A stretch of DNA of 64,000 nt from an uncultured Bifidobacteriaceae bacterium (GCA_964555735.1 CAZKTS010000288.1:1069-65068), one strand, 5' to 3'. Counted from the stretch's first letter, positions 9,244-61,045 are shown. Made by a program: numbers and translations. The notes: generated by a model from the sequence alone, not told the origin.

Positions 9244-9253
9244 GTGATAGGCT
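9244..9253 (+). promoter_or_regulatory. class-L box GTGATAGGCT (extended -10-like), 7 nt before ATG 9261
   Basis: gcGTGATAGGCTcgggggcATG. No SD in the gap. Confidence 0.55.
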
Positions 9254-12268: not shown

Positions 12269-14764
12269 ATGTCCGTCTTCCTCCGCAGGTTCACGTTCGA
12301 TCCGGGGACTGAGGTGTTGCTGGAGATCGAGGCTGTCAACATCCTCGATCTGGAGCCGGTGTCGGCGGTGTCCGGCGTGGGCACTGGAACGGCGTGCGTC
12401 GTCGGTGAGTTCGAGGATGGCCCGTTCGCGACCGTGACCGAGGTGGCGAGCACTCCCGATCTGACGAACACGTTCGGCGGGTTCGGGTACAGCTACGCGG
12501 GGGTCGGCGGAAACAACCCGTGCGCGCGCAAGCGGTTCGCGGACGCGGCGGTGGTGCCGGAGTTCTGGAACGGCAACGGCCTGGTGGCGCTGAACGGCAA
12601 GCGGTTCTCGCGGCTGCTGGTGGCGCGCGTCGACACGAGCGTCGGCGAGGTGCAGTTCTCGCGACTCGCGTACCTACTCGGCGGCAAGCTGTTCTCGTAC
12701 GCGCTGACGTCGGGTGACACGGTGGTCGGCGATCGCGGCGCGGGCATCGGCGCCTTCACGGCGACGTTCACGGGGACGGTCGCGGCGCTGGTGAGCGGCG
12801 TGGGCGTCTACCCGACGCTCTTCGTCGGCGGCGAGACGATCACGATCGCCCGCGACAGCGAGCCGGCGGTGGTGGTGGTGTTCCAGGCGGCCGATCAGCT
12901 GCAGTCGCAGGTGATCAGCCGCATCAACGCGGCGCTCGGGTACGCGGCCGCGGTCGACTCAGGCGGCGGCGTGACGACGCTGTCCGGCCGCGTGGGCGGC
13001 ACGGGTGGGTCGATCGCGATCACGGCGGCCACGCCGGCGGTGCTCGCGGCTACGGGCTTCGTGGTCGGCGCTGCGAGCGGTGGCGGCAACGTGTCGAACA
13101 TCCTGCAGGTCACGCCGCAGGAGATCGACACGATCGTCAACGCGGCGAGCGCGGGCGCGGTGCGGGTGCGGCTGCTCGACAGTGGCCAGCTGCGCATGGA
13201 GAACGTGCAGACGCCGGTGACGGGCGTGCTGCGGATCACGGCTGGCGCGGCGCTGACGTCGTTGGGGTTCTCGGTGACGCAGGCGGCGGCGTACCAGGAC
13301 GCGCCGCAGGAGCTGGAGATCGTGTCCATCGACCCGGCGGTGGCGGTGGCCACCGGCTTCGCGATCGGCTCGGCGCCGGTGCTGTCGAGCGTGGCGGGTG
13401 TGTACCCGAGCGGCTTCGTGGGCGGCGAGCAGATGGTGGTGCAGGTGGCGGGGCAGCCGCCGCTGACGATCGAGTTCGACGCGGCGGATCAGACGCAGGC
13501 GCAGGTGCTGGCGCGCATCAACCTGGCGCTCGGGTACACGGCGGCGGTGGCTCAGACGGCGACGCGGTCGAGCTTGGCGGGCCCGGGCACGCTGTCGACG
13601 GTGGTGCCGGCGGGGACGCTGGTGCAGACGCCGGCGGGCGTGCAGTGGGTGTCGATGCAGACGCTGGCGGTCACGGCGGAGCTGCTCGACGCGCTCACGG
13701 TCAAGGTTCGGCCGGCCAACGACGTGGGAACGACCGTGGCGGCGGTGGCGGGCGCGGTGACGGTGCTCGGGCGCCCGGTGCAGACGGCGGCGTTCTCGAC
13801 GATCAACCCGCTGGCGCTGACGGCGGCGCTGACGGAGGCGCAGCTCGACGCGCGGTATCTGACCGCGCTCGATTCGACGCTGGCCAGCGCGACGGTGGCG
13901 GCGGAGATCAACCTGCTCTGGGCGGCGCGGCAGAGCAACGCGATCCGGGGGGCGCTGCGGCAGAACGTGGTCGATGCGTCGCAGGGCGGCCTGCTCGGCC
14001 GGTCGTGCGTGATCCGGCCGCCGCTCAGCACCACGACGCGCGCGCAGGCGAAGTCGAACGCGGCGCAGCCCGGGGTCGGGGCGTACCGGCTCGATCGGGT
14101 GTGGTACGCATTCCCGGGCGTGCAGTCGTTCATGCCGGCGATCGCGCAGCGCGGGCTGTCCGGCGGCGAGGGGTTCACCGCCGACGGTGTGATCGACGTC
14201 GGCGCGGACGGCTTCCTCGTGTCGGTGTGCTCGCAGCTGCCGCCCGAGGAGAACCCGGGGCAGCTGACGCCGTACGCGGCGGGGGCGATCGGGATCGAGC
14301 GCGGCAACCCCGACGTCCAGACCATGACGATCAACGACTACAAGGCGTTTCGCGCGTCGGGCATCGCGGCGCCGCGGCTCGACAGCGGCGTGATGATCTT
14401 CCAGTCGGGTGTGACGTCGGTGAACCCGCTCCTGCAGCCGAGCTTGCGCAACATCGCGCGCCGCCGCATGGCCGACTTCATCCAGGATTCGCTCGGCGTG
14501 CGGCTCAAGCGGTTCGGCAAGCAGCTCAACACGCGCTCGCGGCGGACGCAGATCGTCGGTGAGATCCGGGCCTTCATGCTGGAGCTGCAGAACTCGCAGC
14601 GCGTGGCCGGGTTCGCGGTCGACCTCAATTCTGGCAACACGCCGCAGACGCTGGCGCTCGGGATCTTCCGGATCCTGCTCAACGTGCGGACGTGGTCGAG
14701 CCTGGACGCGATCGTGCTGGCGACGCGCATCGGCGAAGCCGTCGAGATCGAAGCTGCGGCGTGA
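12269..14764 (+). CDS. contractile tail sheath protein (831 aa) with duplicated insertion domains
   Basis: Synteny is sheath-tube-chaperone(PRF)-tape measure. The C-terminal region (INDYKAFRASGIAAPRLDSGVMIFQSGVTSV ... RNIARRRMADFIQDSL ... GIFRILLNVRTWSSLDAIVL) looks like a sheath C-terminal domain. Confidence 0.75.
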   Translation: MSVFLRRFTFDPGTEVLLEIEAVNILDLEPVSAVSGVGTGTACVVGEFEDGPFATVTEVASTPDLTNTFGGFGYSYAGVGGNNPCARKRFADAAVVPEFWNGNGLVALNGKRFSRLLVARVDTSVGEVQFSRLAYLLGGKLFSYALTSGDTVVGDRGAGIGAFTATFTGTVAALVSGVGVYPTLFVGGETITIARDSEPAVVVVFQAADQLQSQVISRINAALGYAAAVDSGGGVTTLSGRVGGTGGSIAITAATPAVLAATGFVVGAASGGGNVSNILQVTPQEIDTIVNAASAGAVRVRLLDSGQLRMENVQTPVTGVLRITAGAALTSLGFSVTQAAAYQDAPQELEIVSIDPAVAVATGFAIGSAPVLSSVAGVYPSGFVGGEQMVVQVAGQPPLTIEFDAADQTQAQVLARINLALGYTAAVAQTATRSSLAGPGTLSTVVPAGTLVQTPAGVQWVSMQTLAVTAELLDALTVKVRPANDVGTTVAAVAGAVTVLGRPVQTAAFSTINPLALTAALTEAQLDARYLTALDSTLASATVAAEINLLWAARQSNAIRGALRQNVVDASQGGLLGRSCVIRPPLSTTTRAQAKSNAAQPGVGAYRLDRVWYAFPGVQSFMPAIAQRGLSGGEGFTADGVIDVGADGFLVSVCSQLPPEENPGQLTPYAAGAIGIERGNPDVQTMTINDYKAFRASGIAAPRLDSGVMIFQSGVTSVNPLLQPSLRNIARRRMADFIQDSLGVRLKRFGKQLNTRSRRTQIVGEIRAFMLELQNSQRVAGFAVDLNSGNTPQTLALGIFRILLNVRTWSSLDAIVLATRIGEAVEIEAAA

Positions 14765-20271: not shown

Positions 20272-22034
20272 TCGACGAATACCCCGAGCAGGGGTACTAC
20301 CCTGGCGCGCTCGTACGACTTGCGATCCGGTTCGACGACCCGAAGCGCAAGCGGTTCAATCGCCAGTTTCCGCGCTATCCGGCCACGGCGCTCAAGCGCA
20401 AGATCCCGCGCGTGCTCGACATCGTGCAGGACGGCGCCGATCTGGTGCTCGTACCGCGCGGCTCGAAGGACTTGGCGGTGTCGCCGCAACGGCAGGCGGT
20501 GAGCGATGACCAGCTGACACAGGTGATCGACGGCGTGATCCCGCTGAATGCGACGCTGTCGCTGAACGGCCTGCGGACGGCGAGCACGCTGTCGCTTGAG
20601 ATCCCGTATGCCGATCTGCCGGTAGAGCCGCGCATGGTGCGCGGCGTCGGCGTGGAGTTCTACCTCGGGACGCTGACGGCCGAGGAGTTCCGGCGCGGCA
20701 TCAGTGGCGGCCTGCGCGCGGGTACGAACGGGCAATTTGTGCCGCTCAATTCGATCCCATATGACTACGTCGACGGCTTCGGCCGGAAGCGGACAAATCT
20801 ACGCTTCGAGGGCTGGGTCGATGCGTGGGAGGCGTCGTGGAGCAGCGACGGGCAGCCCACGGTCAAGCTGGAGTGTCGCGACAACACGACGCTCTTGATC
20901 GATACGGAAGCGCCGCAGCAGCTGACGATCGATCCCAAGCTGCCGGTCACCCGCGCGTTTGCGGACTACCTTGCGGCGTTCCCGCAGTTCTTCGGGCTGC
21001 GCGTGCGCTACTACCCCGACGGGGCCGAGGTGCCGATCTATCGCAAGGCGCTGCAAAAGAGCGCGTTTAACCCGCGCCTGGGGCCGATGGCGACCGGCGA
21101 GAAGATGAGCATCTGGGACTACTTCACCGATGTTGCCGGAGCGATCGGCCACACGGTGCGATTCGACGGGCGCGCGATCATCGTGCAGCGACCTCGCACG
21201 TACTACGGCGGGCAGTACCCGCCGCGCCCCGACGATCCGTTCCAGGGGCGGCTCTTGCCAAGCGGCCGCGCGCTGCCGTTTCGGCTGTTCGTGTACGGGC
21301 GAAACATCCTCGACTATTCGGTCAAGCGAAACTTCACGACGGCGGGCCCGACGACGATCGAAGTGCGGTGCTACTCGAACACGAAGAAGCGAACGCTGGT
21401 CGTCCGCTACCCGCTGAAGAAGGACCGACTGGAGCGCGGCCTACCTGGGAGTTTGCTACCCGATGAGAAGCTCGTGGTGTTTCGCCTGAGCGGCATCGGC
21501 GATGACAAGACCTTGAAGATCGTCGCGCAGCAGATTTACGAGCAGCTGGGGCGCAACGAGCTGGAGGTCATGATTCATACGAAGAACCTCGGCTCGTTCG
21601 GCGGCAGCACCCTCGACCCCGACCTACTCGATTGCAAGCCTGGCGACACGGTGCAGCTGGAGATCAGCGACGATCCGACCACGGCCGAGGGCAACACGAC
21701 CAGCGCGATCGAGCGCGAGGGGACGGTGGCGACGCGCGCGGCGGCATTCGTGCGCGAGCTGGGCTACAGCGACGACTTCGCCCGGGCGTACGGGCGTGCG
21801 AAAGAGGCGGCGCGGCACCAGCAATCGTTTTACCGCGTGAAGCGCATGGAGTATCGGTGGTCGATGGATCAAGGGATCGATGTGGTCGTGACCGGGATCA
21901 ACTACCTGGAGGTCCGTGGCGATGAGCTGCCGGAGGGTGAGGTGCAGCTGAGCGCGGAGGATGTGCGGGCGCAGCAGGCGCAGCGCGCGAGAGAGTTCCC
22001 GATCGCGTCGCACGGGCGCCGGCTGGGTGGGTGA
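20268..22034 (+). CDS. baseplate hub protein (P2 gpD / Mu gp44-like)
   Basis: Synteny, plus a FEGWVDAWEASWSSDGQPTVKLECRDNTTLL-type motif common in gpD-like hub proteins. Confidence 0.55.
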   Translation: MIDEYPEQGYYPGALVRLAIRFDDPKRKRFNRQFPRYPATALKRKIPRVLDIVQDGADLVLVPRGSKDLAVSPQRQAVSDDQLTQVIDGVIPLNATLSLNGLRTASTLSLEIPYADLPVEPRMVRGVGVEFYLGTLTAEEFRRGISGGLRAGTNGQFVPLNSIPYDYVDGFGRKRTNLRFEGWVDAWEASWSSDGQPTVKLECRDNTTLLIDTEAPQQLTIDPKLPVTRAFADYLAAFPQFFGLRVRYYPDGAEVPIYRKALQKSAFNPRLGPMATGEKMSIWDYFTDVAGAIGHTVRFDGRAIIVQRPRTYYGGQYPPRPDDPFQGRLLPSGRALPFRLFVYGRNILDYSVKRNFTTAGPTTIEVRCYSNTKKRTLVVRYPLKKDRLERGLPGSLLPDEKLVVFRLSGIGDDKTLKIVAQQIYEQLGRNELEVMIHTKNLGSFGGSTLDPDLLDCKPGDTVQLEISDDPTTAEGNTTSAIEREGTVATRAAAFVRELGYSDDFARAYGRAKEAARHQQSFYRVKRMEYRWSMDQGIDVVVTGINYLEVRGDELPEGEVQLSAEDVRAQQAQRAREFPIASHGRRLGG

Positions 22035-23095
22035 TGGCTGGGCGCAGCACTGACCAGAGCACGATGGCGCAGGCGTTCGCCGGGCCCGGGATGGACACTC
22101 GGATCTGGGCGTCGTGGGCGACGGTGGACGCGCCCGATGAGACGGGCGAGCAGGCGGTGGTCTTCGACCAGGAGGACGGCCAAATCTATGTGGCGTGCAC
22201 GCTGCAGCCGTCGATGATCCCGGTCAATGCGCGGGTGGGGATGCTGTTCGCGGGTGCAGGTGAGGCGGCGTGGTTTCCGCTGCTCGCGGGCGACGAAGTG
22301 TTCGTGATCTTGCCCGAGGGCGACCCGCGCGCGGGTGCGCTGATCGTGAGCCGCGCAAACAACGCCTACGATCCGTTTCCGTTCGACTCGGTCGCGGGCG
22401 TGGATCCGACGATGAATAGCCTGGCGGTGCTGCGCACGCGCCCGGCGGTCACGATCGAGAGTGGCGCGACGGTGATGCTGCGCAGCGCGGCGGCCGGCGC
22501 GTTCTTTCGGCTGGACGCGAAGGGTGGCATCACATCGCGCGATGGGTCGACGGGTGTGCTGCAGCAGAGCGCGGATCTGTGGGGCTATCAGTCGGGGCCT
22601 GGCGATGCGTTCCACCAGTTCGATCTGAATGCGCAGCGGTACAGCTGGCAGATCGGCTCGGCCAACGCGACCTTCTGCGGCGATGGCGCCGACGTCGCGA
22701 CGCAGGGCCGCTCGATCGTGAAGCTGCCGGGGCCGTGCACGCTGGCGATGGGCGGGCTCGATCAAAACAACGCGGTGGAGCACGCGGCGAGCACGGAGTC
22801 GGTGGTCAATCTGCTGGTGCAGGTGCTGGCGCTAGTGGGCGCCAACATCGCGGTGGCCAACCCGGGGCCGCTGACGGGCGCGGCGCTGGCACCGCTGCTC
22901 AACGCGCTGACCACGCCGACGGTGCAGGCGGCGATCGTGGCGGCGATTCAGGCGGCGGCGGTGCAACCGCAGGCGTCGAGCATCGCGGCGGCGCTGTTCG
23001 CGGCGCTGGCGACGCCGACGGCGAAGCCCGCGGGCGTGCCGGGGTTCGGGCAGCTGCAGCCGGGGCTAGGTTCGCAGGGGCTGGTGATCGGGTAG
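22031..23095 (+). CDS. baseplate central spike (gpV/gp45, VgrG-like OB-fold)
   Basis: AGAGEAAWFPLLAGDEVFVILPEGDPRAGALIV matches the gpV/gp5 OB-fold signature (GDEV.V.f..GD...p.i.g). Confidence 0.7.
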   Translation: MMAGRSTDQSTMAQAFAGPGMDTRIWASWATVDAPDETGEQAVVFDQEDGQIYVACTLQPSMIPVNARVGMLFAGAGEAAWFPLLAGDEVFVILPEGDPRAGALIVSRANNAYDPFPFDSVAGVDPTMNSLAVLRTRPAVTIESGATVMLRSAAAGAFFRLDAKGGITSRDGSTGVLQQSADLWGYQSGPGDAFHQFDLNAQRYSWQIGSANATFCGDGADVATQGRSIVKLPGPCTLAMGGLDQNNAVEHAASTESVVNLLVQVLALVGANIAVANPGPLTGAALAPLLNALTTPTVQAAIVAAIQAAAVQPQASSIAAALFAALATPTAKPAGVPGFGQLQPGLGSQGLVIG

Positions 23096-23098: not shown

Positions 23099-24439
23099 AT
23101 GGCGATGGCCATGGCGAGTGCGCGAGAGTTGGCGGCGGCGTGTCAGGCGGTGCCGTGCACGGCGGTTCCTGTGCGGCTCGCGGACGGGCGCGTGGTGGAG
23201 TTCTGGGCGATGAACGACGCGGCCAAGGTCGCGGGCGTGCGGGCGATGGTATCGGCCAACCTCGCGCAGCAGGCGGCCGACCTGTGCGGGATGATGTTGC
23301 CGACGGCGCGCATGGTCGATCTGATCGTGGACGCGGCCACGATGCTGGTGGACCCGATGCCGATGCCGATCAGCGCGACGCCGGAGGCGGCGGTCACTCA
23401 TTCGCGCCGAGTGGATACGGCGGTCGGCGCGGCGCGCGGGCTCCTGAGCAACGTGGGCAAGTGGTGGGTGATCGATAACAAGCTGTCGATCGCGCACGGC
23501 CGGGCGATGAACTACGGGTGGCACGTCCGCGCGAACCCTTGGCGCGGGATCGCGACTCACCCGGCGGTCAGCGGGTCATGGCGTGTGATCCAGCCGGCGG
23601 CGACGGCGCACAACGGCCTGCACTACGACTACTCGCAGACGCTGCGGCTGGTGCGGCGCGAGTGCACGCTGGACGGAGAGCCGGCGGACCTCGCGCAGCT
23701 GCTGGCGGATCCGACCTGCGCGGCGGCGCTCACGACGTGCGGCCCGATGGTGATCACGCGCCAGCCGGGGGTGGAGCCTCCCGGGGTGGTGGTGCTGCCC
23801 GAGGTGGTGATCACGGCGAGCCCGCCGAAGCCGGTGGCGCCGAAGCCGATGGTGGCGGCGGTGGCGGCCGCGCGGGCGGCGATGGGCGACTTCGAGGACA
23901 TCCGCTTCGTGCCGACGCGGCAGCGCACGGCGGCGCAGCGCCGGCCGGACCAGATCCGGTGGATCGTGCTGCACACGGCCGAGACGGGCGAGGTGCCCAA
24001 CGCGGCGGAGAACCTCGCGGCGTGGGTGGCGGGGCCGCAGGCGCCGCAAGCGAGCTGGCACTTTGCGGTCGACTGCGACTCGATCGTGCAGAGCGTGCGG
24101 CTGTGTGATGTGGCGTGGCACGCGCCGGGCGCGAACCGAGATGGCATCGGGATCGAGCAGGCGGGGCGCGCAGCGCAGGGCGGCGTGCAGTGGGAGGACG
24201 ACTACTCGACGCGGATGCTGGAGCGCACGGCGCAGCTGGTGGCGCGGCTGTGCCGGCTGACGGGGATCCCGGTGGTGCGGCTCGGGCCTAGCGATCTGGT
24301 GCGTGCGGGGACGCGCGGGGTGTGCGGGCATCACGACGTGACGCTGGCGTTCATGAAGTCGACGCACACCGATCCGGGCGCGGCGTATCCGTGGGATCGA
24401 GTGCTCGGGCGGGTGCGTGATCTGCTGGCGGGTGGGTGA
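23099..24439 (+). CDS. N-acetylmuramoyl-L-alanine amidase (Amidase_2/AmpD-PGRP type) with a ~250-aa N-terminal domain of unknown function
   Basis: The C-terminal domain reads IRWIVLHTAETG ... WHFAVD ... AWHAPGANRDGIGIEQAG ... VCGHHDV..KSTHTDPG. The start could be ATG 23099, 23105 or 23111. Confidence 0.85.
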   Translation: MAMAMASARELAAACQAVPCTAVPVRLADGRVVEFWAMNDAAKVAGVRAMVSANLAQQAADLCGMMLPTARMVDLIVDAATMLVDPMPMPISATPEAAVTHSRRVDTAVGAARGLLSNVGKWWVIDNKLSIAHGRAMNYGWHVRANPWRGIATHPAVSGSWRVIQPAATAHNGLHYDYSQTLRLVRRECTLDGEPADLAQLLADPTCAAALTTCGPMVITRQPGVEPPGVVVLPEVVITASPPKPVAPKPMVAAVAAARAAMGDFEDIRFVPTRQRTAAQRRPDQIRWIVLHTAETGEVPNAAENLAAWVAGPQAPQASWHFAVDCDSIVQSVRLCDVAWHAPGANRDGIGIEQAGRAAQGGVQWEDDYSTRMLERTAQLVARLCRLTGIPVVRLGPSDLVRAGTRGVCGHHDVTLAFMKSTHTDPGAAYPWDRVLGRVRDLLAGG

Positions 24440-25677: not shown

Positions 25678-26582
25678 GTGGGTGGGGCTCGGGCTACTGG
25701 GGCGCCGGGCCATGGGGCGCGGGTGGCATCGACGCGCTGCGCATGCTCGGCGCTGAGGCGGTGCGCGAGAACGTGGTCCGCGTGACGTTCAACGCTGCGC
25801 CGCTGTTCGATCGGCTGCTCGGGCCCAACGATGCTAGCGACCCGAAGCGGTTTCAGATCGTGGCGGACGTCTTGACGATCGGGCGCGACGGCGAGCCCGC
25901 GCGGCCGGTGTTGCCGGTGCTGGTTGAGGTGGCGCCGATCGAGCTGTCGTTCGGCGCGGTGCTCGATGTGACGACGGACCGGCCGCTCTCACCCTGGCCG
26001 ACGTACTACCGGATTTCGGCGACGCAGCTCGTGGTGGCGGCGACGGGCGGGCTACTCGACCCGGCGGCGAGCAGCCGCGAGTTCCAAGGGCTGTATCGGG
26101 AGCTGCGCGTGCCGACGACGGCGATCGCGACGCCGAGTCAGGACGTGGCGAGCCCGGCGGCCGGGTTCGACGTCGTGCCGGGGCTGCCGGCGCTGACGCC
26201 GAGTGATGAGGAGCTGCAGCTCGGGACGTACGTGCCGGGCGATGATGGCGACTACGCAACCGACTCGGGGATCGCACAGCTGCGCAAGCGGATCTTCCGG
26301 CGGTTTGTGACGGCGCCTGGTGCGTTCGCGCACTTGCCGGGATACGGGCTCGGGGTCCGGTCGTACGGCAAGCGGCTGGGGACGGCGGCGGTGCGTCAGC
26401 AGCTGGTCGCCACGGCGATGGCGCAGCTGCGCGAAGAGCCGGACGTGGTCGCGGTGAAGGTGCGCGCTGAGACGGACGCGCGAAACCCGAGCATCACGCG
26501 GTTCTTTGTCGACGTGAAAGCGGCGGCCGCGCCCGACTGGGTGACGTTCGACTACTCGTTTGGAGGGACTGGAAATGGCTGA
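25674..26582 (+). CDS. baseplate wedge protein with C-terminal gp25/GPW-like domain
   Basis: GTGA overlap. The C-terminus RKRIFRRFVTAPGAFAHLPGYGLGVRSY ... LREEPDVVAVKVRAE ... ITRFFVDV resembles GPW/gp25. Lies directly upstream of the J-like gene. Confidence 0.55.
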   Translation: MSGWGSGYWGAGPWGAGGIDALRMLGAEAVRENVVRVTFNAAPLFDRLLGPNDASDPKRFQIVADVLTIGRDGEPARPVLPVLVEVAPIELSFGAVLDVTTDRPLSPWPTYYRISATQLVVAATGGLLDPAASSREFQGLYRELRVPTTAIATPSQDVASPAAGFDVVPGLPALTPSDEELQLGTYVPGDDGDYATDSGIAQLRKRIFRRFVTAPGAFAHLPGYGLGVRSYGKRLGTAAVRQQLVATAMAQLREEPDVVAVKVRAETDARNPSITRFFVDVKAAAAPDWVTFDYSFGGTGNG

Positions 26583-27699
26583 CTTCCCGACGCGGCTGGA
26601 CTTGTACGCGATCGGCCGCGACTACGTCACGCAGCGGGCGCGCAAGATCGATCCGGTCCAGGTCGACATCTCCGGCAGCGACATCAATCTCTATGTGGGG
26701 ATCGCGAGCTACGTGGGCAGCGCGGTGGTGCTCGCGCTCGTGCAATCGATCAATTCGCTGCTCTTGAACGGCGCCTACCGCGAAGACCTCGATCGGTACG
26801 CGCTCGATCGCTACTCGAACCAGGTGCCGCGCAAGGGCGCCGCGGCAGCGCGCGGCTTCGTGACGATCGCACGGCCGACGGCGGCGGCCGGTGCTGGATC
26901 GATCCCGCTCGGGACGCGGCTGCTGACGCTCTCGGGCGTGGAGTACACTACGGTCGCGGACGTCAGCATGGGGGGCGCACAGCTCACGCTGACGAATGTG
27001 CCGGTCCGCGCCGCGCAGGCGGGCAAGTCGAGCCAGACGGGCGCAAACACGATCCGACTCTTCGGCGACCTCGGCGCGCTGTGGGACCAGACGCTGACGG
27101 TGACCAACCCCGAGCGCACGGCGAACGGCGAGGACGCCGAGGAGGACGACGTCTACCGCGAGCGGATCCGTGCCTACTGGGGCGCGGCGCAGCGCGGGAC
27201 GCTCGCGGCGATCGAGTTCGGCGCGCGCAAGGTGCCTGGCATCACGAGCGCGCTGGCCGAGGAGGTGATCGATCCGACCGATCCCAACAAGCCCGCGCGC
27301 GTGGTGAATCTCTACATCGCCGACTCATCCGGCGTGGCGTCGGCGGCGATCGCGGCGGAGGTGCTGGCCGAGCTGCGCGAGTGGCGCGCTGGGGGGATCG
27401 CGGTGATCGTCAACACCAGCGTTCCGGTGATCGTCGACGTGCAGCTGCATCTGACGTTCGCGGCCGCGGTCGACACGACGTCCTTGACGGGGACGATTCG
27501 CGCGGCCGTCGCGGACTACATCAACAACCTGGGCGTGGGGCAGACGCTCTATCGCGCGGCGATTTACTCGGTGCTGCAGCGCTACACGCAGAACGGGCTG
27601 ATCGTAAACACGGCCAGCGTGGTGAGCCCGGCGGGCGACGTCGTGCCGGAGATCGGGCAGGCGTTGCGCACGCGATATGAAAACGTGGTGGTGGTCTGA
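26575..27699 (+). CDS. baseplate J-like protein (P2 gpJ / Mu gp47)
   Basis: SGSDINLYVGIASYVGSAVV ... REDLDRYALDRY..VPRKGAAAARGFVTI is a Baseplate_J-type pattern. ATGGCTGA overlap. Confidence 0.75.
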   Translation: MADFPTRLDLYAIGRDYVTQRARKIDPVQVDISGSDINLYVGIASYVGSAVVLALVQSINSLLLNGAYREDLDRYALDRYSNQVPRKGAAAARGFVTIARPTAAAGAGSIPLGTRLLTLSGVEYTTVADVSMGGAQLTLTNVPVRAAQAGKSSQTGANTIRLFGDLGALWDQTLTVTNPERTANGEDAEEDDVYRERIRAYWGAAQRGTLAAIEFGARKVPGITSALAEEVIDPTDPNKPARVVNLYIADSSGVASAAIAAEVLAELREWRAGGIAVIVNTSVPVIVDVQLHLTFAAAVDTTSLTGTIRAAVADYINNLGVGQTLYRAAIYSVLQRYTQNGLIVNTASVVSPAGDVVPEIGQALRTRYENVVVV

Positions 27700-29564: not shown

Positions 29565-30470
29565 ATGGCACGGTTTGGGCTGCTGAATACGGTCACGGTG
29601 ACGCCGGGCGTGACGCTGGCGCCCGGTGCGGTGGTTGATGACCCCAAGCTGGTGCAGGCGGCGAGCGCGGCGGGTGGCGTGCTCGTGTCGGTCGACACGC
29701 CTACGGGCGCTGACGCGGTCGAGGTCGCGCGGCGATTCGCCGATCGCGGCGATAGCCTCGGCGGCAGCATGGCCGGGATCGGGCGCCTGGCGGTGGCCGG
29801 CGGTGGCGGTGGTGGTGGCATCTTCAGCCTGGCGCGTGTCGACTGCTCGGTGAACGCGGCCTACGTCGAGGCGCCGTACAGCGCGAGCCCGGTGCTGCAC
29901 ACTCGCGCGGGCGGCAACGCGGTCGGCGGCTACAACGGCACCGGGGTCGGCAACAAGTGCATCCTCGGATTTGCGGCGGGCGTGGGCACGGCGATCGGCG
30001 CATGGACGGGGCTGCGGTGGACGTGGCTGGACTTGGCGCCGGCGACGCCGGGTATCGGGTGCTACTCGAACCAGATCGTCAATCTGGGCGGTGGGACGAT
30101 CAAGGTGTTCGTGGTCGACCCGGGCGCCAACCCGGCGCTGAATAACGGCGTGACGGTGATCAACGGCGATGGGAGTCGAACCACGACGTTCGATCCGGCC
30201 GTGCACTTCGTGACGGTGGTGAATGACGTGGTGGGCGTGGTGCCGGCGGTGGACCTCGGCGGCAGCTGGACGGCGCGCAGCTACCGCGTGAGCGACATCC
30301 TGGCGGTCTACCCGGGGGCGGTGTTCGCGAACGTGGCCAGCGGAGACGGTGGGATGCCGGCGACGCCGGTGGCGACTCCGCCCGTGCTGATCGTGACCGG
30401 CGACAGCACAAATAACCGGGTGCGCGCGTTCCGCCTGTCGGCGGTCGAGTTCAACGGCGCGGCGGTGTGA
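29565..30470 (+). CDS. tail fibre/spike A (301 aa): shared N-terminal module + poly-Gly linker + distinct C-terminal domain
   Basis: About 85 N-terminal residues are paralogous to the protein at 33631, followed by a GGGGGGG linker. ATG lies 6 nt after GTGATAGGCT. Confidence 0.55.
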   Translation: MARFGLLNTVTVTPGVTLAPGAVVDDPKLVQAASAAGGVLVSVDTPTGADAVEVARRFADRGDSLGGSMAGIGRLAVAGGGGGGGIFSLARVDCSVNAAYVEAPYSASPVLHTRAGGNAVGGYNGTGVGNKCILGFAAGVGTAIGAWTGLRWTWLDLAPATPGIGCYSNQIVNLGGGTIKVFVVDPGANPALNNGVTVINGDGSRTTTFDPAVHFVTVVNDVVGVVPAVDLGGSWTARSYRVSDILAVYPGAVFANVASGDGGMPATPVATPPVLIVTGDSTNNRVRAFRLSAVEFNGAAV

Positions 30471-30477
30471 TCGGCGT

Positions 30478-30487
30478 GTGATAGGCT
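30478..30487 (+). promoter_or_regulatory. class-L box GTGATAGGCT, 7 nt before ATG 30495
   Basis: gtGTGATAGGCTcggtcgcATG. Confidence 0.55.
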
Positions 30488-30494: not shown

Positions 30495-32120
30495 ATGTCA
30501 TCCGGTGGCAAGCGGCTGGTCCTGAATTTCGAGGAGCGCATCATCTCGCCCGATGCGAATCGGGCGCAGGCGTTCCAGTCGGCGCAGATCGCGGAAAGTG
30601 CGCGGCAGCTGTTCTCGCCATCAGAGAACGTCGACGTCTTCTCAGCGCAGCCGACGCCGGCGACGGTGACGGCTCCGGCTGGTGGTGCGGTGCTCAACGG
30701 GCTGATGGTCGTAGCACCGCTCGGGTCGCTGGAGCTGGCGGTGACCTCGGGCATGGCGCTCCTGATCGATCCCGACGGGCAGCCGGGCTCGACGGTGTTG
30801 ACGCCGGCCAACCCGGACGACTCGATCGGCAAGCTGTGCTACGACGCCGTCGGCGTGCTCGCGGGCAGCGGCGTGCTCGTGTTCATCCCGAATGGCTCGG
30901 GGCTCGTGCGCGTCGACGTGGTCGAGATCCAGCGCGACCCGGGGGCGGTGCTGGAGATCGACAATCGCGACATCTTCAACCCCGGGACCGGGCTCTTCAC
31001 GCCGGCGACGGTCGACAAGGTCGCGGCGGACGGGGTCGTGTACCGGATCCGTGCGGGTGTGCCCGGCGGTGGCGTGCCGGCGTCGGTGCTCGGGTGGATG
31101 CCGATCGCGGTGGTCAGCGTGCCAAGCGGTGCGGCCAATTTCGACGCCTGCACGCTGTACGACGTGCGACCGCTCGTGAGTGACCGAGGGCCCGGGTCGG
31201 GCGCGCTGCTTGGTGGGCCGCTGACGTCGCGGACGCGCGTGGGCGACTTCTACGTCGATCCGACGACTACGCCGGGCGCGCTGATCATGAGCGGCTGGGT
31301 CGATGGGCTCGCGCAAGGTGCGCGCGCGGGCGGCGTCTTCGGCGGGTTCAACCTGCGCGATGTGGCGAACCAAGAGCCTGGGTTCGCAGTCGTGGCGAGT
31401 ACGCTGGTCGCGGTGTGGCTGCTGTTTCCCGGCGGCCTGCCGCGGTGGGTGCGGTACTCGACGGTCGCCTCGCCGCCGTTCGGCGGCCGCGTGCCCAACG
31501 GGCCGCGCGGGATCATGGTGCTCTCTTCGACGCTGCCGCTCTCCACGGCGCCGCTGCCGAGCGCGCCGGTCAACCCGCCGCCTGCGAGTGGGCTGGTCGG
31601 GTCGCTGACATCGGAGGCGCTGCTGGTCGGCGTGCTCGCCAATTCGTCGACGCCGGGGGTCGCCGGGTGCGTGGCGAAGTGCGTGGACGGGCGCACGACG
31701 TTCGGGCAGGCGCCGGGCGTGGGGATCCCGGTGCTGCTGCCGGTAGTCACGCCGGCGGCGTTCTCGGCGGCAGTGGCGCTGCAGTACGGGCTGACGGTGC
31801 CAGCGGGGGTCCGCGCGGTGCTGCTGAACGCGACGTGCGACATGACTGGAGTACCCGCGACGCCGTTCAACTACCAGCCGAGCATGGGCAGTCAGCGCTT
31901 CCCAGTCGGGAACGAGATTTTCGTCGGCGAGGCGAACACTATCGCGGCGCAGACCGACGGCGCCGGCGTCGTACAGCTCGGCCAGACGCGGTGGGTCGAT
32001 CTGATGGTCGACCGCTCGAACATCCAGCCCGTGCTTCAGGTCGCCAACGTAAACTGGCTGCAGGCGGCCGGCGTCATCAAGAGCGCCGATGCCGCGGCGG
32101 TGCTCGGGTGGGAAGTGTGA
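30495..32120 (+). CDS. tail fibre-module structural protein (541 aa)
   Basis: Position only. ATG lies 7 nt after GTGATAGGCT. Confidence 0.45.
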   Translation: MSSGGKRLVLNFEERIISPDANRAQAFQSAQIAESARQLFSPSENVDVFSAQPTPATVTAPAGGAVLNGLMVVAPLGSLELAVTSGMALLIDPDGQPGSTVLTPANPDDSIGKLCYDAVGVLAGSGVLVFIPNGSGLVRVDVVEIQRDPGAVLEIDNRDIFNPGTGLFTPATVDKVAADGVVYRIRAGVPGGGVPASVLGWMPIAVVSVPSGAANFDACTLYDVRPLVSDRGPGSGALLGGPLTSRTRVGDFYVDPTTTPGALIMSGWVDGLAQGARAGGVFGGFNLRDVANQEPGFAVVASTLVAVWLLFPGGLPRWVRYSTVASPPFGGRVPNGPRGIMVLSSTLPLSTAPLPSAPVNPPPASGLVGSLTSEALLVGVLANSSTPGVAGCVAKCVDGRTTFGQAPGVGIPVLLPVVTPAAFSAAVALQYGLTVPAGVRAVLLNATCDMTGVPATPFNYQPSMGSQRFPVGNEIFVGEANTIAAQTDGAGVVQLGQTRWVDLMVDRSNIQPVLQVANVNWLQAAGVIKSADAAAVLGWEV

Positions 32121-32503
32121 CCACGCCGAGCGATGCGCTGCTCGCGGCGCGCGATCTGTCGCGCATCGCGCTTGCATCGGCCACGACCTTGCAAGACCCG
32201 GTGTCTCGCACCCTGGACGACTTGGCGCGCCGCGCAGGCACGACCCGCGCGCTGGTGGCGACCGCGTGCGGCGTCGACCCTCTGCTGTTCGAGCGCGTCG
32301 ATCAGGGGCGGCAGCCGATGCCGCTATCGGTGGTGGTGTCGATCGCGTCGTTGCTGCGGATCCCGATGTGGATGGCGCGCGCGGCGTGCCGGTCGTGGAC
32401 CGACCAGATCGACGCGCGGCTGCGCAACCCGAAGCCGCCGCGCCCCATTCTCGGGGATTCGTTGCCGGCGGTGTCCATCGTGGCGACGGTGCCGCAGCCT
32501 TGA
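32117..32503 (+). CDS. XRE-family helix-turn-helix protein (128 aa)
   Basis: GTGA overlap. RTLDDLARRAGTTRALVATACGVDPLLFERVDQGRQPMPLSVVVSIASLLRIP fits the Cro/C1-type HTH pattern. Confidence 0.6.
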   Translation: MTTPSDALLAARDLSRIALASATTLQDPVSRTLDDLARRAGTTRALVATACGVDPLLFERVDQGRQPMPLSVVVSIASLLRIPMWMARAACRSWTDQIDARLRNPKPPRPILGDSLPAVSIVATVPQP

Positions 32504-32513
32504 CGGGACCACG

Positions 32514-32840
32514 ATGGAGGCGCGCGCTGTAGAGCTGCTCGGGTCGCTGGGGTTGCCAGGGCTGGTCATCGGCGGCCTGTGGCTGTACGCGCGGCAGCTG
32601 CACCTCCGCAACGAGCAGATCATGGATCTGCGGCTGCGTGAGGCGCAGGACTATGCCTCGGTGCTGCGGGCTATCGACGAGACGCGCGTGCGTGAGGAGC
32701 GCGAGCGTGGAGATCGGATCTTGGCGGTGCAGCGCGAGGTGCACGCCACGATCAAGCAGCTGACGATGTTGGTGGAGCGCGAAGAGCGCCGCGACGATCG
32801 CCTAGACCGCCGCGGGTCATGGAGACAGGACGATGAATAA
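32514..32840 (+). CDS. N-terminal TM + charged coiled-coil protein (holin/BhlA-like or i-spanin-like architecture)
   Basis: LLGSLGLPGLVIGGLWLYA is a TM segment, followed by REAQDY...REERERGDRILAVQREVHATIKQL. Confidence 0.5.
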   Translation: MEARAVELLGSLGLPGLVIGGLWLYARQLHLRNEQIMDLRLREAQDYASVLRAIDETRVREERERGDRILAVQREVHATIKQLTMLVEREERRDDRLDRRGSWRQDDE

Positions 32841-33030
32841 CCAACGCACGATCGCGGACGTGGCGCGTGAGATGGAGATCGAAGAGGAGTCGGCGCGGCT
32901 CGAAGCGCGCGCGCGTGCACTGGTGGCGCGTGCCGCGGCGCTCCTCGACGGGCAGGCGCGGCGTCAATCCGGCCAGCATCGGCTCGATCTACCGCCGGAA
33001 ATGATGGCGCTTCGCAAGCCATCGGCCTGA
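32833..33030 (+). CDS. hypothetical small helical protein (65 aa)
   Basis: Overlaps the upstream stop. High GC3. Confidence 0.4.
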   Translation: MNNQRTIADVAREMEIEEESARLEARARALVARAAALLDGQARRQSGQHRLDLPPEMMALRKPSA

Positions 33031-33040
33031 GTGATAGCGT
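33031..33040 (+). promoter_or_regulatory. class-L box GTGATAGCGT, 8 nt before ATG 33049
   Basis: gaGTGATAGCGTttcgggccATG. Confidence 0.5.
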
Positions 33041-33048
33041 TTCGGGCC

Positions 33049-33282
33049 ATGGCAAGTGTGTTCATGGCTCTCGCGCAGTCGCGCAAGGCGTGGGTGGTGC
33101 TGGCCGCGGTGGTCGGCGTGATCGTGATGAATGTCACGGGGCGCGTGCCGGGCGAACGCGCGCTGGACTTCATCAAGTGGATCGTGATGACGTGGCTCGG
33201 CGCGCAGGCGGCCGAGGACGCCGCGGGCAAGCTGCTCGTTCCACCCAAGAGTGGCGGCGATGAGACTGGCGGTGTCGAGTGA
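33049..33282 (+). CDS. two-TM small membrane protein (class II holin-like)
   Basis: ATG 33049 lies 8 nt after GTGATAGCGT. Hydrophobic segments AWVVLAAVVGVIVMNV and FIKWIVMTWLGAQAA, with a charged C-terminus. Confidence 0.5.
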   Translation: MASVFMALAQSRKAWVVLAAVVGVIVMNVTGRVPGERALDFIKWIVMTWLGAQAAEDAAGKLLVPPKSGGDETGGVE

Positions 33283-33626
33283 GCCGCGCGATTCACATCG
33301 TGACGGCGGGCGGCGCGGTTCTGCCGGTCGACACGTCGCCAGTGTCGGTCGAGCCGCCGCGTGAGCGCGTGTTCCCGTTCGTGCGGTCGCCGACGGGTGC
33401 CGATGCGCTCTGGCTGGGTGCGATCGGCGGGTCGTGCACCGTGGAGCTGTGGGCCAAGGACGGCGCGGACTGGTTCGCGGCGACTGCGGTGCCGGTGGTC
33501 GTGCCGGCGAACCGGCTCGCGCTCGGGTTCGCCGGGCTGATCGTGCCGCAGGAGCTGCTGTACTTCGTCCAGATCACGGCGAACGCGGGAGCCACGCAGC
33601 TCCGCGTCGGAACGATCTACAGGTGA
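33279..33626 (+). CDS. hypothetical protein (115 aa)
   Basis: GTGA overlap. High GC3. Confidence 0.5.
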   Translation: MSRAIHIVTAGGAVLPVDTSPVSVEPPRERVFPFVRSPTGADALWLGAIGGSCTVELWAKDGADWFAATAVPVVVPANRLALGFAGLIVPQELLYFVQITANAGATQLRVGTIYR

Positions 33627-33630: not shown

Positions 33631-36351
33631 ATGTTGCTCGCGCTGCTGAATCAGGTTTCGATTTCGGGCACGACGCTCACGCCTGGCAGCGTGATCGATG
33701 ACGTCGCCGACCCGCAGCTTGCGGGGGCGGTGCTCGAAGCGGGCGGCATCCTGGTCAACCTGGGGACGCTCCAAGGGGCTCGCGCGGCGGACCTCGCGCA
33801 GCGCTTCGCGCGGCGTGGCGACACGACCGGCGCGGCGATCGCGGGCATCGGCGCGATGCTCGGCGCAGGAGGAGGCGGTGGCGGCGGTGGCGCGTGCGCG
33901 TCGACGTACTCGGTCCCGAGCGATGACTACCCGACGATCGAGGCGGCGCTGGCTGCGGCCAACGGCGCGGCCGGGCCTGCGCAGCCGATCACGGTGATGG
34001 TGTGCCCGGGGACGTACGTGGTGACGTCGACGCTCGACATCACGAACCCCTACGTGGACGTCACGGCTGAGAGCGAGGTCAGCGCGTTCGTGCTCGCGGC
34101 GCCGGGCGTCTCGCCGCTACTGCGCGTGAGTGCGCCGCCCGCGCTCGATGCGGTGCGCGTGCGCGGGCTCGTGCTGATGCGCTCGGATGCGGGCGTGATG
34201 CTCGACCTGACATCGCAGCAGAGCGTCTTCGTGGCCGACTGCGTGTTTCTGCGCACGGCGGCGTCTCCGGGCATCGTCTGCGTGCAGCAGTCGGCGTCGA
34301 CGTTCACGGTCCTGGAGCGGTGCTTCGTGGGGATCGATAGCGGCGGCCTGCCGTCGGGCTCGGCGTTCGTGGTGACGGATGGCCAGCTGACGCTGTCGGA
34401 CTGTCAGATCCAGGACGCGCTCGGATCGAGCGTGACGGGGCCCGGGTCGGCCGTGACGCTGAGCCGGTGCCTGATGCAGTCGGCGGCGACGGCGCAGGCG
34501 CTGCTGGTCACGGGCGGCGCGCGCTTGGACGCGAAGAGCCTGCAGCTGTTCGCGCCGAGTGCGGCGGCCGGCGTGGTGCTGAACGGCGCAGCGACGGGCG
34601 ACCTGGAGAGCTGCTCGATCAACGGCGACGCGCCCGCCGCTGCTGGTGTGCGCGCGCTGGGCTCGGCGTCCGTGCGCGTGCGCCTGAGCCAGATCCGGGC
34701 TGACGTCGGTGTCTACGGGGGCGGCGCGGTCGTGGAGCTGGAGTCGGTGCAGTACGCGACGACGACGGCGCTGCCTGGCGTGATGCTGACGGCCTCGGCG
34801 GGCGTGGCGCGTGCGCTGAATTGTGTCTGCTACCCGCCGCACATCCCGCTGGTGCAGTCAGCGGGTGTACCGTGCGCGATGCTCTGGGGCGAGCTGGCGA
34901 TGCAGAATGCGCTGATCGCGACGCCGCTGGATGTGCGCTGGGTCACGAGCGCGACGGCGGAGCTGGAGGTGCAGCACCTCAACGGGTCGTGGGCGAGCTT
35001 CGCGATCCGGTCGCCATACACGCCGACAAGCCCGAGCGACCCCAACGGGGCCGTGGGTGCGATCAATTGGGGCGACTCGACCACCCATCCGCCGCTGCTG
35101 AGCGTGCGATCGAGCACTGGCTGGGCCAGCGTGCCGATGGGCGGGGTAGCTGACCTCGCGAGCGTGACGGCGCTACCGGGGGCGTTGCGCCCTGGCGCCT
35201 CGGTGTGGTGCGCGGAGGTGCGCGCGTCATTCGTGCTGACTGACTTTGCGGCACCGCTCGCGGTCAACGGGGTCACGGTGCTGGCGACGGCGCTGGGCGG
35301 CAATACGCGCTGGGAGCGCGTGCAGGGTGGGCCGCAGTCGGATCTGGCGCTGTACGGCGACGGGCGAGACGGTGTCGCCACGATCAGCGCGCCGGTCACG
35401 CTGACGCGCGACATGTTCTACGCCGATCTGACCCTGACCCCGGGTGCCGCCATCACGACGGCGGGATTCGCGATCTACGTGGCCGGGGTGCTGGACCTCA
35501 GCACCGCCCCAGCCGGGGCGATCGCGCGCAGTGGCGCCAACGGCGCCAACGGCGCCACGGTGGGCACCGGAGGCGGCGCAGGCGCGGCTTTGGCCGCGGT
35601 GGCCACGGGGGGCTCTGGCGCGGGCACCGCGGGCGGTGCGGGCGGCGTAGCGGCCGGCGTGCAGGCTACGGCGCCGACGGCGCAGAACCCGGGCAACGGC
35701 GGCGTCGGCGGGCTCGGCGCGGCCGGCGGCTCGGGCTCGGGTGGCGCCGGCGGCGCGGCCCGCGCTGGCGCGGCGGTCACTGCGTACCCGCGGGGCGTGC
35801 TGACCACGCAGCTCACGCGAGGCGCGGCGATCATTCAGGGCGGCGCCGGCGGTGCCGGCGGTGGTGGCGGCGGCGGCGATGCGACCTCGGGCGGCGGCGG
35901 TGGCGGTGGTGCGAGCGGCGGCGGCGTGGTGCTGGTGTGCGCGCGCACGATCCAGAGAGGCGGCGGCACGGCGGCGGGTGCGATCCGGGCGCTGGGTGGC
36001 ACCGCAGGCAACGGCGGCTCGGCGACGGCGGGCAATCGCGGCGGCGGCGGTGGTGGTGGTGGTGGCGGCGGTGGGTGGGTGATGGTGATCTATGATCAGC
36101 TCATCGGTGCGGCCGCGCCGAATGCGGTGGCGTGCAACGGCGGCAACGGCGGCACGGGCGGCAACGGCTTCGGCACTGGTATCGGCGGCACGGGCGGCAC
36201 GGGCGGCGCCGGTGGGCGCGTGACGCTCATGTCGCCGCTGGTGGGCACGATCGCCGATTCGGTCGGTGGTGCTGGGTCGGCCGGCAGCGCGGGCGCTGGT
36301 ACGGTGGGCGGCGCGGGTGGTGGCGGTGCAGCCTTCGCGGTGACGCTATGA
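33631..36351 (+). CDS. tail spike/fibre B (906 aa): shared N-terminal module, beta-helix-like middle, extreme glycine-rich C-terminal region
   Basis: The N-terminus is paralogous to 29565. Residues ~100-400 show ~25-30 aa periodic V/L/C repeats like a parallel beta-helix. The last ~270 aa carry poly-Gly runs (G7, G7, G12) separated by short segments. Confidence 0.7.
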   Translation: MLLALLNQVSISGTTLTPGSVIDDVADPQLAGAVLEAGGILVNLGTLQGARAADLAQRFARRGDTTGAAIAGIGAMLGAGGGGGGGGACASTYSVPSDDYPTIEAALAAANGAAGPAQPITVMVCPGTYVVTSTLDITNPYVDVTAESEVSAFVLAAPGVSPLLRVSAPPALDAVRVRGLVLMRSDAGVMLDLTSQQSVFVADCVFLRTAASPGIVCVQQSASTFTVLERCFVGIDSGGLPSGSAFVVTDGQLTLSDCQIQDALGSSVTGPGSAVTLSRCLMQSAATAQALLVTGGARLDAKSLQLFAPSAAAGVVLNGAATGDLESCSINGDAPAAAGVRALGSASVRVRLSQIRADVGVYGGGAVVELESVQYATTTALPGVMLTASAGVARALNCVCYPPHIPLVQSAGVPCAMLWGELAMQNALIATPLDVRWVTSATAELEVQHLNGSWASFAIRSPYTPTSPSDPNGAVGAINWGDSTTHPPLLSVRSSTGWASVPMGGVADLASVTALPGALRPGASVWCAEVRASFVLTDFAAPLAVNGVTVLATALGGNTRWERVQGGPQSDLALYGDGRDGVATISAPVTLTRDMFYADLTLTPGAAITTAGFAIYVAGVLDLSTAPAGAIARSGANGANGATVGTGGGAGAALAAVATGGSGAGTAGGAGGVAAGVQATAPTAQNPGNGGVGGLGAAGGSGSGGAGGAARAGAAVTAYPRGVLTTQLTRGAAIIQGGAGGAGGGGGGGDATSGGGGGGGASGGGVVLVCARTIQRGGGTAAGAIRALGGTAGNGGSATAGNRGGGGGGGGGGGGWVMVIYDQLIGAAAPNAVACNGGNGGTGGNGFGTGIGGTGGTGGAGGRVTLMSPLVGTIADSVGGAGSAGSAGAGTVGGAGGGGAAFAVTL

Positions 36352-60803: not shown

Positions 60804-61045
60804 AGCCCGCGCGGGTCGTGGACCTGGAGGCGCGGCGGCAGGCGCTGGTCGAGCGCGAGCGCGGGTCGCAGATCGAGCGCACGGAGGCGGTGCTGCGGCG
60901 GGTGATCGCGCTGATCGAGACGGCGGGGCTGTCGCCGATCGAGCGGGTGGCGGTGTGTGATGCGGCGGTGCAGATCGTGGGCGAGGGGTGCACGCGGGCG
61001 CAGCTGATCGCGTCGTCGGTGCTGGCCGAGGAGATTTTCGGGTGA
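60800..61045 (+). CDS. hypothetical protein (81 aa)
   Basis: GTGA overlap. Confidence 0.45.
   Translation: MKPARVVDLEARRQALVERERGSQIERTEAVLRRVIALIETAGLSPIERVAVCDAAVQIVGEGCTRAQLIASSVLAEEIFG

Follow-up and report, generated by a model that had tools for sequence, protein, structure and literature searches.

Five small conserved genes at the apparent end of the late operon in a clade of uncultured contractile-tailed phages

A 64,000-nucleotide (nt) stretch of DNA filed under an uncultured Bifidobacteriaceae bacterium (GCA_964555735.1, CAZKTS010000288.1:1069-65068; the window, by which we mean the whole stretch) carries five small genes, here called g1 to g5. They lie between the gene for a 541-amino-acid (aa) baseplate/fibre-module protein (30495-32120, + strand), which anchors the cluster, and that for spike B, a variable receptor-binding-type protein of 906 aa (33631-36351, + strand). 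An original prediction, made from the sequence of the window alone, had described the five as non-structural genes wedged between fibre genes and had offered two explanations: a lysis-timing cassette, or a moron island combining a regulator with membrane effectors. Approximately 12 uncultured relatives, with 35-58% identity in the 541-aa protein, retain the set in the same order, and we conclude with high confidence that g1–g5 are a conserved core late module and not cargo. Our overall explanation, which is tentative and which we place somewhat below an even chance, is that the five genes form the conserved distal end of a late baseplate/fibre operon, with the individual products acting in the roles proposed below. 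This end would be built from two sub-modules: g1-g2-g3, coupled in translation to the 541-aa gene, and g4-g5, a semi-mobile pair whose own late promoter of the leaderless type would also drive spike B.

Conservation and packing of the five genes

Each of the five open reading frames (ORFs) was found on the + strand with the start originally predicted: g1 (32117-32503, 128 aa, GTG start), g2 (32514-32840, 108 aa), g3 (32833-33030, 65 aa), g4 (33049-33282, 77 aa, ATG start) and g5 (33279-33626, 115 aa, GTG start). They show coding-type codon bias and are supported by independent gene calls. Across the five, GC content is 0.74-0.91 at third codon positions (GC3) versus 0.39-0.57 at second positions (GC2), matching the large flanking genes. 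The weakest coding signal belongs to g3, with a GC3 of just 0.74; its Ala/Arg/Glu-rich product also lifts GC at first positions (GC1). The gene caller of the public collection returned the identical five products (128, 108, 65, 77 and 115 aa) on two independent assemblies. The earlier list of genes and their architectures was right overall, whereas its interpretation is supported only in part.

The genes are tightly packed. The 541-aa gene and g1 overlap by 4 nt (GTGA), g2 and g3 by 8 nt, and g4 and g5 by 4 nt (GTGA), and the end of g5 lies 4 nt from spike B; because stop and start codons overlap or nearly touch, the genes appear to be translationally coupled to their neighbours. No terminator-like site was found within 32-33.7 kb, and the GC content of g1–g5 (0.67-0.73) is like that of the flanks. 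In scans against Pfam, PHROGs, NCBIfam and PADLOC, the sole match for any of the five was a sub-threshold one of g1 to HTH_31, and the g1, g4 and g5 proteins had no match among 50,697 GenBank phages.

Homologues of the 541-aa protein numbered 46 in a large protein collection, and the genomic contexts of nine of them were fetched; further loci were obtained through g1, g4 and g5, and comparison was by BLAST and hidden Markov models (HMMs). The set recurs in loci L003, L004, L005, L006, L007, L012/L021 and L014/L016, and in part in L008, L009 and L017. Wherever a g1 homologue exists, it always follows the 541-aa homologue (L003, L004, L005, L006, L007, L008, L012 and L014/16; 9 of 10 relatives keep it), and in L003, L004, L005, L006, L007 and L012 the two genes overlap or abut. 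For the closest four relatives, g1 identity is 42-49%, and for the others it is 32-47%, a divergence like that of the flanking structural proteins. The g2-type slot is occupied in nearly all relatives, and g4 is found in the window and in at least seven other lineages, with order retained.

In the window, the cluster does lie between fibre genes, but in the relatives it is the spikes that vary. In L006, L007, L009 and L014/16, the cluster runs directly into the ResIII helicase gene of the replication module and no spike comes after it; in L003, L004 and L021, spikes with the N-terminal module that is common to spike B and spike A (29565-30470, + strand) come after g4/g5. Because order is kept across the relatives and spikes are missing in L006, L007, L009 and L014/16, the cluster is, as judged from gene order, the conserved end of the late operon, with the spikes as variable inserts. 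The adjacency of g4 and g5 survives relocation in L005 and a swap of their order in L017. L005 has two further genes in the interval from its spikes to the moved g4-g5 pair, one for a 52-aa protein with two transmembrane segments (12791-12949) and one for an RyR-domain protein (13003-13416).

The original prediction had given g4 a box of its own, of the class termed class-L, and this box is real and over-represented. It lies at 33031-33040 on the + strand (GTGATAGCGT), 8 nt 5′ of the g4 ATG. The string GTGATAG occurs 10 times in the window as against 2.4 expected, a count reached in none of 100 shuffles. In its strict form, GTGATA[GC][GC][CG]T, the box is found six times on the + strand, 6-8 nt 5′ of ATG or GTG starts in the structural module (boxes at 9244, 16118, 24869, 29549, 30478 and 33031; ORF starts at 9261, 16135, 24886, 29565, 30495 and 33049, respectively), and it has no occurrence in the replication module of the window. 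Consequently, g4 shares its box class with structural genes, one of which is the 541-aa gene (box at 30478). Among the relatives, the box is present at 2039 in L004, 13441 in L005, 2296 and 6985 in L006 and 7978 in L012; upstream of g4, it is found in the window, in L005 and in L012 and, in a degenerate form, in L003.

On general promoter geometry, the box may be read as an extended −10 element (TGn-TAnnnT) with a transcription start at or beside the start codon, which would give leaderless late mRNAs. Read in this way, the box before g4 would yield a leaderless g4-g5-spike B transcript. Elsewhere in the window, positions 62716-63276 encode a 186-aa product with a weak match to Sigma70 region 4/the RpoS C terminus (E = 4e-4 to 7e-4); conceivably, this product recognises the late box as a sigma-like factor of the phage.

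The folds of g1 and g5

In the g1 product, a helix at the N terminus precedes a five-helix fold of the XRE (Cro/C1) type (residues 31-95), and the protein ends in a disordered, Pro-rich tail that carries the motif NPxPPxPxxGDxxP. The earlier description of g1 as a Cro/C1-type helix-turn-helix (HTH) protein is borne out by the core of its structural model and by the neighbours of that model, together with sequence-profile matches, one of them sub-threshold. The Pfam family HTH_31 matches with E = 6.7e-5 and 23.6 bits, below the gathering score of 27, and a profile of the nine-member g1 family retrieves NGO0477 (3kxa, E = 1.1e-6) and ClgR (E = 0.0065) from the PDB. AlphaFold2, given the nine-sequence alignment, places helices at residues 33-39, 44-50, 55-62, 70-80 and 84-90 with predicted local distance difference test (pLDDT) scores of 83-92, the N-terminal helix being less certain. 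The top 50 Foldseek neighbours are mostly XRE, Cro and antitoxin HTH proteins. As a model-based assignment, the XRE fold is sound: residues 31-95 are predicted to adopt the same five-helix fold as XRE domains at large (HTH_31/HTH_3; C.BclI, 434 Cro, ClgR, NGO0477), and g1 carries their [S/D]P..L..[IV][ED].G[RK].P signature.

Several features nevertheless set g1 apart from these domains, in addition to its score below the Pfam threshold. Helix 3 reads DPLLFERVD, which places D/P/L/L/E at the contact positions, and across the family these positions are D/N-P-L/F-L/F-L/V-E/Q. The net charge of the family core ranges from +4 to −5; six members lie at −4 to −5, and the g1 of the window at +4. The g1 family showed neither a recognition helix with polar or basic residues for DNA contact nor a positive face for binding. 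Moreover, g1 lies inside a baseplate/fibre operon, and in two lineages its domain and Pro-rich linker constitute the N-terminal ~95 aa of long beta-rich proteins of the 450-510-aa class (L008, 452 aa; L014, 513 aa). The C-terminal domains fused to it in L008 and L014 (350-400 aa) are mutually unrelated; they are propeller-like in appearance and have a faint NHL match, and PHROG and Pfam scans of the fused g1 proteins and of the 242-, 217-, 195-, 166- and 134-aa products of relatives gave nothing usable. Both fused forms are encoded directly after the 541-aa homologue, among fibre genes. For g1, fused as it is to large beta-rich domains in two lineages, the label 'non-structural' is therefore doubtful.

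The atypical helix 3 and charge, the clade-wide link to the baseplate/fibre gene and the fusions in L008 and L014 disfavour a reading of g1 as a routine repressor. We suggest that g1 might instead be a protein-binding module, a proposal that we regard as possible without being quite probable. Its XRE fold would bind protein and dock on the 541-aa protein or on the spikes, and in sister lineages it would bear exchangeable beta-rich heads. Phage receptor-binding proteins combine a conserved N-terminal module with exchangeable heads and are encoded just after a fibre-type gene, as are the T2-type gp38 adhesin/chaperones. In the same way, g1 comes directly after, and is coupled to, a fibre-module gene, and two C-terminal domains with no relation to each other are found attached to its conserved module; by contrast with those proteins, g1 has no head domain in most relatives, and its attachment is here putative. 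The position of g1, with its 4-nt overlap of the upstream 541-aa fibre-module gene, also matches that of a tail fibre assembly chaperone. No Tfa/gp38-type homology of g1 was found in Pfam or PHROG, and its fold is XRE instead. We know of no receptor-binding anchor or chaperone with an XRE fold, and a search of the literature for fibre proteins with an XRE domain turned up no relevant report. A further step, which we consider unlikely though worth stating, is that the XRE fold has been recruited as the baseplate/fibre-docking module of exchangeable receptor-binding proteins, with stand-alone g1 as its head-less form, and that together with g4-g5 it constitutes a new clade-wide accessory module of the tail end in a so far undescribed line of environmental myoviruses.

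The main rival for g1 is a true DNA-binding XRE regulator made late, for example for the shut-off of early or middle genes or in readiness for the next infection. Under this explanation, g2–g4 would be unrelated membrane proteins and the fusions in L008 and L014 would be one-component regulators with sensor domains. Two points count in its favour and against our own proposal: the core of g1 is so clearly XRE that DNA binding has to be counted as possible, and an HTH domain followed by a variable C-terminal domain is the classical architecture of a one-component regulator. The proteins matched by fold and profile are, moreover, repressors, C-proteins and antitoxins, and the g1 core of the window has a net charge of +4. 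However, the contact positions in helix 3 are acidic or hydrophobic, six of the family cores are at −4 to −5, and g1 is always coupled to the baseplate/fibre gene, with even its fused forms standing among fibre genes. No conserved operator-like palindrome is known for it, although no search aimed at one was made. We retain the regulator as an improbable but serious competitor to the protein-binding module.

The product of g5 is predicted by AlphaFold2 (24 sequences) to be a soluble, eight-stranded beta-sandwich of the jelly-roll type (mean pLDDT 86.9; predicted template modelling score 0.81). A word-index search found only g5 itself, and a sequence-profile search of the PDB yielded nothing meaningful. 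An exhaustive search of 1.84 billion representatives returned 30 homologues, of which ~24 are stand-alone proteins of 113-129 aa; the remaining matches are weak, multi-stretch ones to giant immunoglobulin-like or PKD repeat proteins. Structural neighbours in the PDB are generic jelly-rolls, carbohydrate-binding modules and C1q heads, with template modelling scores (TM-scores) of at most 0.48. The best neighbours among predicted viral structures are C-terminal domains of collagen-like phage fibres, Mtd-N proteins, a tail fibre and 'virion proteins' (TM-scores 0.5-0.64, E = 5e-3 to 6e-2). With the C-terminal jelly-roll or C1q-TNF-like head domains of collagen-like and Mtd-type fibres, g5 shares a compact eight-strand sandwich; it differs from them in being a stand-alone protein of 115 aa with no stalk.

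The g5 gene changes its place within the structural modules. It adjoins g4 in L003, L005, L012/L021, L014/16 and L017. In L018 (7001-7366), it lies between a scaffold-region gene and the major capsid gene, directly upstream of the latter; in L019 (6001-6351), it is part of the head module; and on the contig bearing P0068, the g5 homologue again ends the tail module. In phage lambda, the slot that g5 fills in L018, just ahead of the major capsid gene, belongs to the gene for the decoration protein gpD. This likeness is one of gene position only, and gpD is not among the top 50 PDB matches listed for g5. Because g5 always lies in structural modules, changes slot and has a fibre-tip-like fold, it may be a virion-associated protein, a call that we regard as evenly balanced; a small accessory or decoration protein built on a jelly-roll of the fibre-tip kind would be its most likely form. 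With such a fold, and with a place in the head module of two relatives, g5 too is doubtfully called 'non-structural'.

Cys-rich secreted proteins or lipoproteins of 216-217 aa with the motif DVSLVDGYSN are encoded in L004 (12535-13188), L005 (12031-12684) and L019 (5341-5991), and in L019 the gene adjoins the g5 homologue. We take the motif to be one that occurs in thaumatin-like proteins; the L004 member had no match in Pfam.

The small membrane proteins and the lysis question

The g4 product has a basic N terminus (SRK), a strong first transmembrane segment, a GRVxGE turn, a conserved amphipathic helix (ALxFIKWIVMTWLGAQAxEDA) and an acidic tail. Calculated by hand, Kyte–Doolittle hydropathy is ~2.4 for the first segment (residues 14-31 of the window protein; a scan gave 2.4-2.5 in homologues) and ~1.05 for the second helix, which has conserved D/E, K and Q residues, as against a cut-off of 1.2. 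The original description of g4 as a two-transmembrane protein therefore holds for the first segment and is uncertain for the second, a weakly hydrophobic amphipathic helix. Homologues of g4 occur in L003, L004, L005, L012/L021, L014/16, L017 and L022; at 71-76% identity in L003 and L004, no protein of the neighbourhood is better conserved, and in L005 and L016 the figure is 49-50%. A first metagenome scan for g4 found none, and a second found short contigs only. No match was obtained for g4 in Pfam, PHROG, NCBIfam, PADLOC or GenBank phages, and hence none to a described holin family. We take g4 to be a probable small, highly conserved membrane protein.

A hydropathy scan bore out the prediction for g2 of one N-terminal transmembrane segment followed by a charged helical tail. 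The segment (conserved GLPGxVIxGL) peaks at a Kyte–Doolittle value of 1.76 at residues 8-24 and is followed by a charged helix of ~80 residues; the charges that flank the segment (−1 N-terminally, 0 C-terminally) are compatible with either orientation in the membrane. True g2 homologues are present in L003, L006 and L014/16. In L004, L007 and L012/L021, the slot holds a protein of the same outline that is not detectably related (hhalign probability 1%), and in L009, which lacks g1, a protein with a transmembrane segment and a helix stands directly after the 541-aa homologue. Such replacement by look-alikes is typical of fast-replaced membrane proteins of the lysis type. A profile search of the PDB with g2 returned only generic coiled-coil proteins (E > 0.2). 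The g3 product is Ala/Arg/Glu-rich and probably helical, with a conserved C-terminal SGEHRLDLP; its homologues in L003 and L006 score E ~1e-35 in hmmsearch, with both sequences being in the seed alignment, and small helical analogues occur elsewhere, although no family match was found. In our proposal, g2 would be a bitopic inner-membrane protein and g3 its small helical partner.

The outline of g2, an N-terminal transmembrane segment and then a coiled-coil-like region, is that of the inner-membrane spanin (i-spanin) of two-component spanins such as Rz/Rz1. A scan of all frames near 32-34 kb for a lipobox found none, and the sole convincing lipoprotein of the window is a 142-aa product (9261-9689, + strand; signal MRKLIGVLMVSAAVALAGC, lipobox LAGC) that has its own late box and belongs to the head–tail part of the structural module. 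A spanin pair with g2 as the i-spanin was rejected, as no embedded, overlapping or adjacent lipoprotein gene is present. In addition, the charges of g2 do not clearly put its helix in the periplasm, and there is no homology of g2 to Rz/Rz1, only the L009 analogue matching an Rz-like PHROG (E = 0.036). As an outer-membrane spanin, g3 was likewise rejected, having no signal peptide and no Cys.

The mycobacteriophage-type precedent that g2 and g4 most resemble in layout is the holin-like pair of Ms6, in which Gp4 (77 aa) has two transmembrane segments and Gp5 (124 aa) has one N-terminal transmembrane segment and a charged tail (PMC6116114). Likewise, g4 (77 aa) and g2, with its N-terminal segment and charged tail, are near neighbours where the late genes end. 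The two systems differ in that they have no sequence similarity, g3 separates g2 from g4, there is no neighbouring lysA/lysB, the second helix of g4 is weakly hydrophobic and its tail acidic, and the role of g2/g4 is putative. On the grounds of the late promoter class, the position at the end of the late operon, the small membrane proteins themselves, the replacement of g2 and the Ms6 precedent, we propose that g2 and g4 time lysis. They would most likely control its membrane step, as a holin-like pair comparable to Ms6 Gp5 and Gp4. The proposal is a tentative one, and we consider it rather doubtful. The earlier idea of a lysis-timing cassette thus survives for g2/g4, through the Ms6-like architecture and the look-alikes in the g2 slot; it is weakened by the missing adjacent endolysin, holin or spanin homology and lipoprotein partner, and by the acidic C terminus of g4.

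The muralytic genes named in the original prediction bear on this question in different ways. The amidase (23099-24439) was confirmed (Amidase_2, 2e-19; PHROG endolysin, 4.9e-41). Within the baseplate block, its gene is flanked by the hub gene and by a conserved gene for ~100 aa, and a copy is present in L003 (634-1935). By contrast, the supposed SLT-like gene at 61042 corresponds to a 212-aa ORF (60988-61626) for which no family or relative was detected, with no support in Pfam, PHROGs, NCBIfam, PDB sequences, GenBank phages or IMG/VR.

Several observations weigh against the explanation that we favour. The amidase gene lies 9 kb upstream and is missing from its slot in L004, L005 and L006, which suggests that it is an optional insert encoding a tail-associated lysin rather than the endolysin of the clade. 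No muralytic gene stands beside g4 in the window, L003, L004, L005, L012, L016, L017 or L021, no endolysin adjoins the cluster in any of the ~12 relatives, and g1–g5 have no sequence relation to holin, spanin or Tfa families. The g4 tail (EDAAGKLLVPPKSGGDETGGVE) is net negative, unlike the hydrophilic and usually basic C terminus of class II or pinholin-type holins, and the second helix is weakly hydrophobic, unlike that of typical holins. Two genes downstream of the SLT-like ORF, positions 61852-62460 encode a 202-aa product with a very hydrophobic N-terminal transmembrane segment (Kyte–Doolittle 3.4); with its far stronger segment, this membrane protein could be the real holin, and 60988-61626 and 61852-62460 could together be an alternative lysis locus. 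Finally, the structural matches of g5 are weak, none having E < 1e-3 and none a TM-score above 0.64.

An alternative that we consider quite unlikely is that all five products are virion or assembly proteins (chaperones, adaptors or tips), with the hydrophobic parts of g2 and g4 buried, or inserting into the membrane, in the tail tip. It would accommodate the location of the genes within the structural operon under the same promoter class, the post-fibre slot of g1, usual for chaperones, and the fibre-tip-like fold of g5. Nevertheless, the transmembrane segments of g2 and g4 are basic-flanked and contain Gly, as is typical of integral membrane proteins, no likeness to known chaperone families was found in Pfam or PHROG, and replacement by unrelated transmembrane proteins, as seen for g2, is unusual for structural parts.

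It is distinctly unlikely that g2 and/or g4, perhaps with g5, are late superinfection-exclusion or receptor-masking proteins, which would protect the infected cell or prevent the loss of progeny on debris, as T5 Llp does. The T5 Llp gene lies beside the receptor-binding gene of T5; here, too, membrane proteins are encoded beside receptor-binding-type spikes, and g4-g5-spike recurs as a unit with its own promoter. However, g4 (71-76% identity) is far more conserved than the downstream spikes, it persists without a downstream spike in L014/16, L017 and L022, and it lacks a lipoprotein signal. Genes for exclusion tend to be early and to vary.

We regard as very improbable the main explanation of the original prediction, in which the whole cluster is a complete lysis cassette of holin, antiholin and spanin that works with the distant amidase. 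The cluster does hold two membrane proteins, g2 has the outline of an i-spanin, and the end of the late operon, which the cluster occupies, is a common place for phage lysis genes. Against this stand the lack of any muralytic gene within or beside the cluster in ~12 relatives, the lack of a lipobox ORF there or nearby, the folds of g1 (XRE) and g5 (jelly-roll), neither of which is of the lysis type, and the status of the amidase gene as an optional insert in the baseplate block.

We give scarcely any credence to cargo beside the fibre genes, whether as a moron or as an island for defence or abortive infection: an XRE-type protein, small membrane proteins and a box of its own before g4 would suit it, but the set is clade-wide, with its order conserved down to 35% identity in the 541-aa neighbour, its GC content (67-73%) is that of its neighbours and genome-like, PADLOC models gave no match to any of g1–g5 at E ≤ 0.1, the sole promoter box is of the structural-gene class with no terminator, and stop/start overlaps bind the genes to their neighbours.

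The phage clade and the meaning of the module

The window has a GC content of ~70%, and nearly all of its genes are on the + strand. Its first 36 kb are a contractile-tail structural module, which includes the major capsid protein (6272-7648; 26-27% identity to capsids of Streptomyces, Ralstonia and Komagataeibacter phages), the sheath (12269-14764), the hub (22031-23095), baseplate J (26560-27699; no more than 27% identity to SPO1-like Bacillus phages) and, upstream of spike A, a 617-aa protein. Replication genes follow downstream (UvrD-like, ResIII and DnaB helicases, primase, PolB and RecA). Library scans found no family match for the 541-aa protein; the DNA of the region and the 541-aa protein had no match in the GenBank phages, nor had the 541-aa protein alone in IMG/VR. 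The cluster belongs to a clade of uncultured phages, high in GC and with contractile tails, that had not been described before. In L017 (contig CAYZYD010000244.1), where g5-g4 lie beside an inverted replication module, the contig is binned in an 'uncultured Planctomycetia' metagenome-assembled genome; this is the only hint of a host and, being too weak, it was not used.

The N-terminal 80 aa of spikes A and B are 49% identical (E = 2e-11), and the C-terminal ~220 aa of spike A have 65-67% identity to the C termini of the L004 and L005 spikes. From these comparisons, both spikes have the look of modular proteins for receptor binding that are built on one shared anchor. The last third of spike B, at its C-terminal end, is extremely rich in Gly (GGxGG runs), with local GC of up to 0.83 at 35500-36100.

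The outcome is not a novel type of system but a set of new families of proteins from a phage lineage that had not been described. It is not safe to presume that small genes next to fibre genes are cargo, as the relatives turned a suspected moron island into a core module. If g2 and g4 do time lysis, they would be two new holin-like families unlinked from any endolysin, and a reminder that adjacency alone cannot locate lysis genes. If g1 does act in docking, it would be, to our knowledge, the first structural adaptor of the Cro/C1 fold for receptor-binding proteins, and would provide a handle for predicting host-range modules in this uncultured phage clade.

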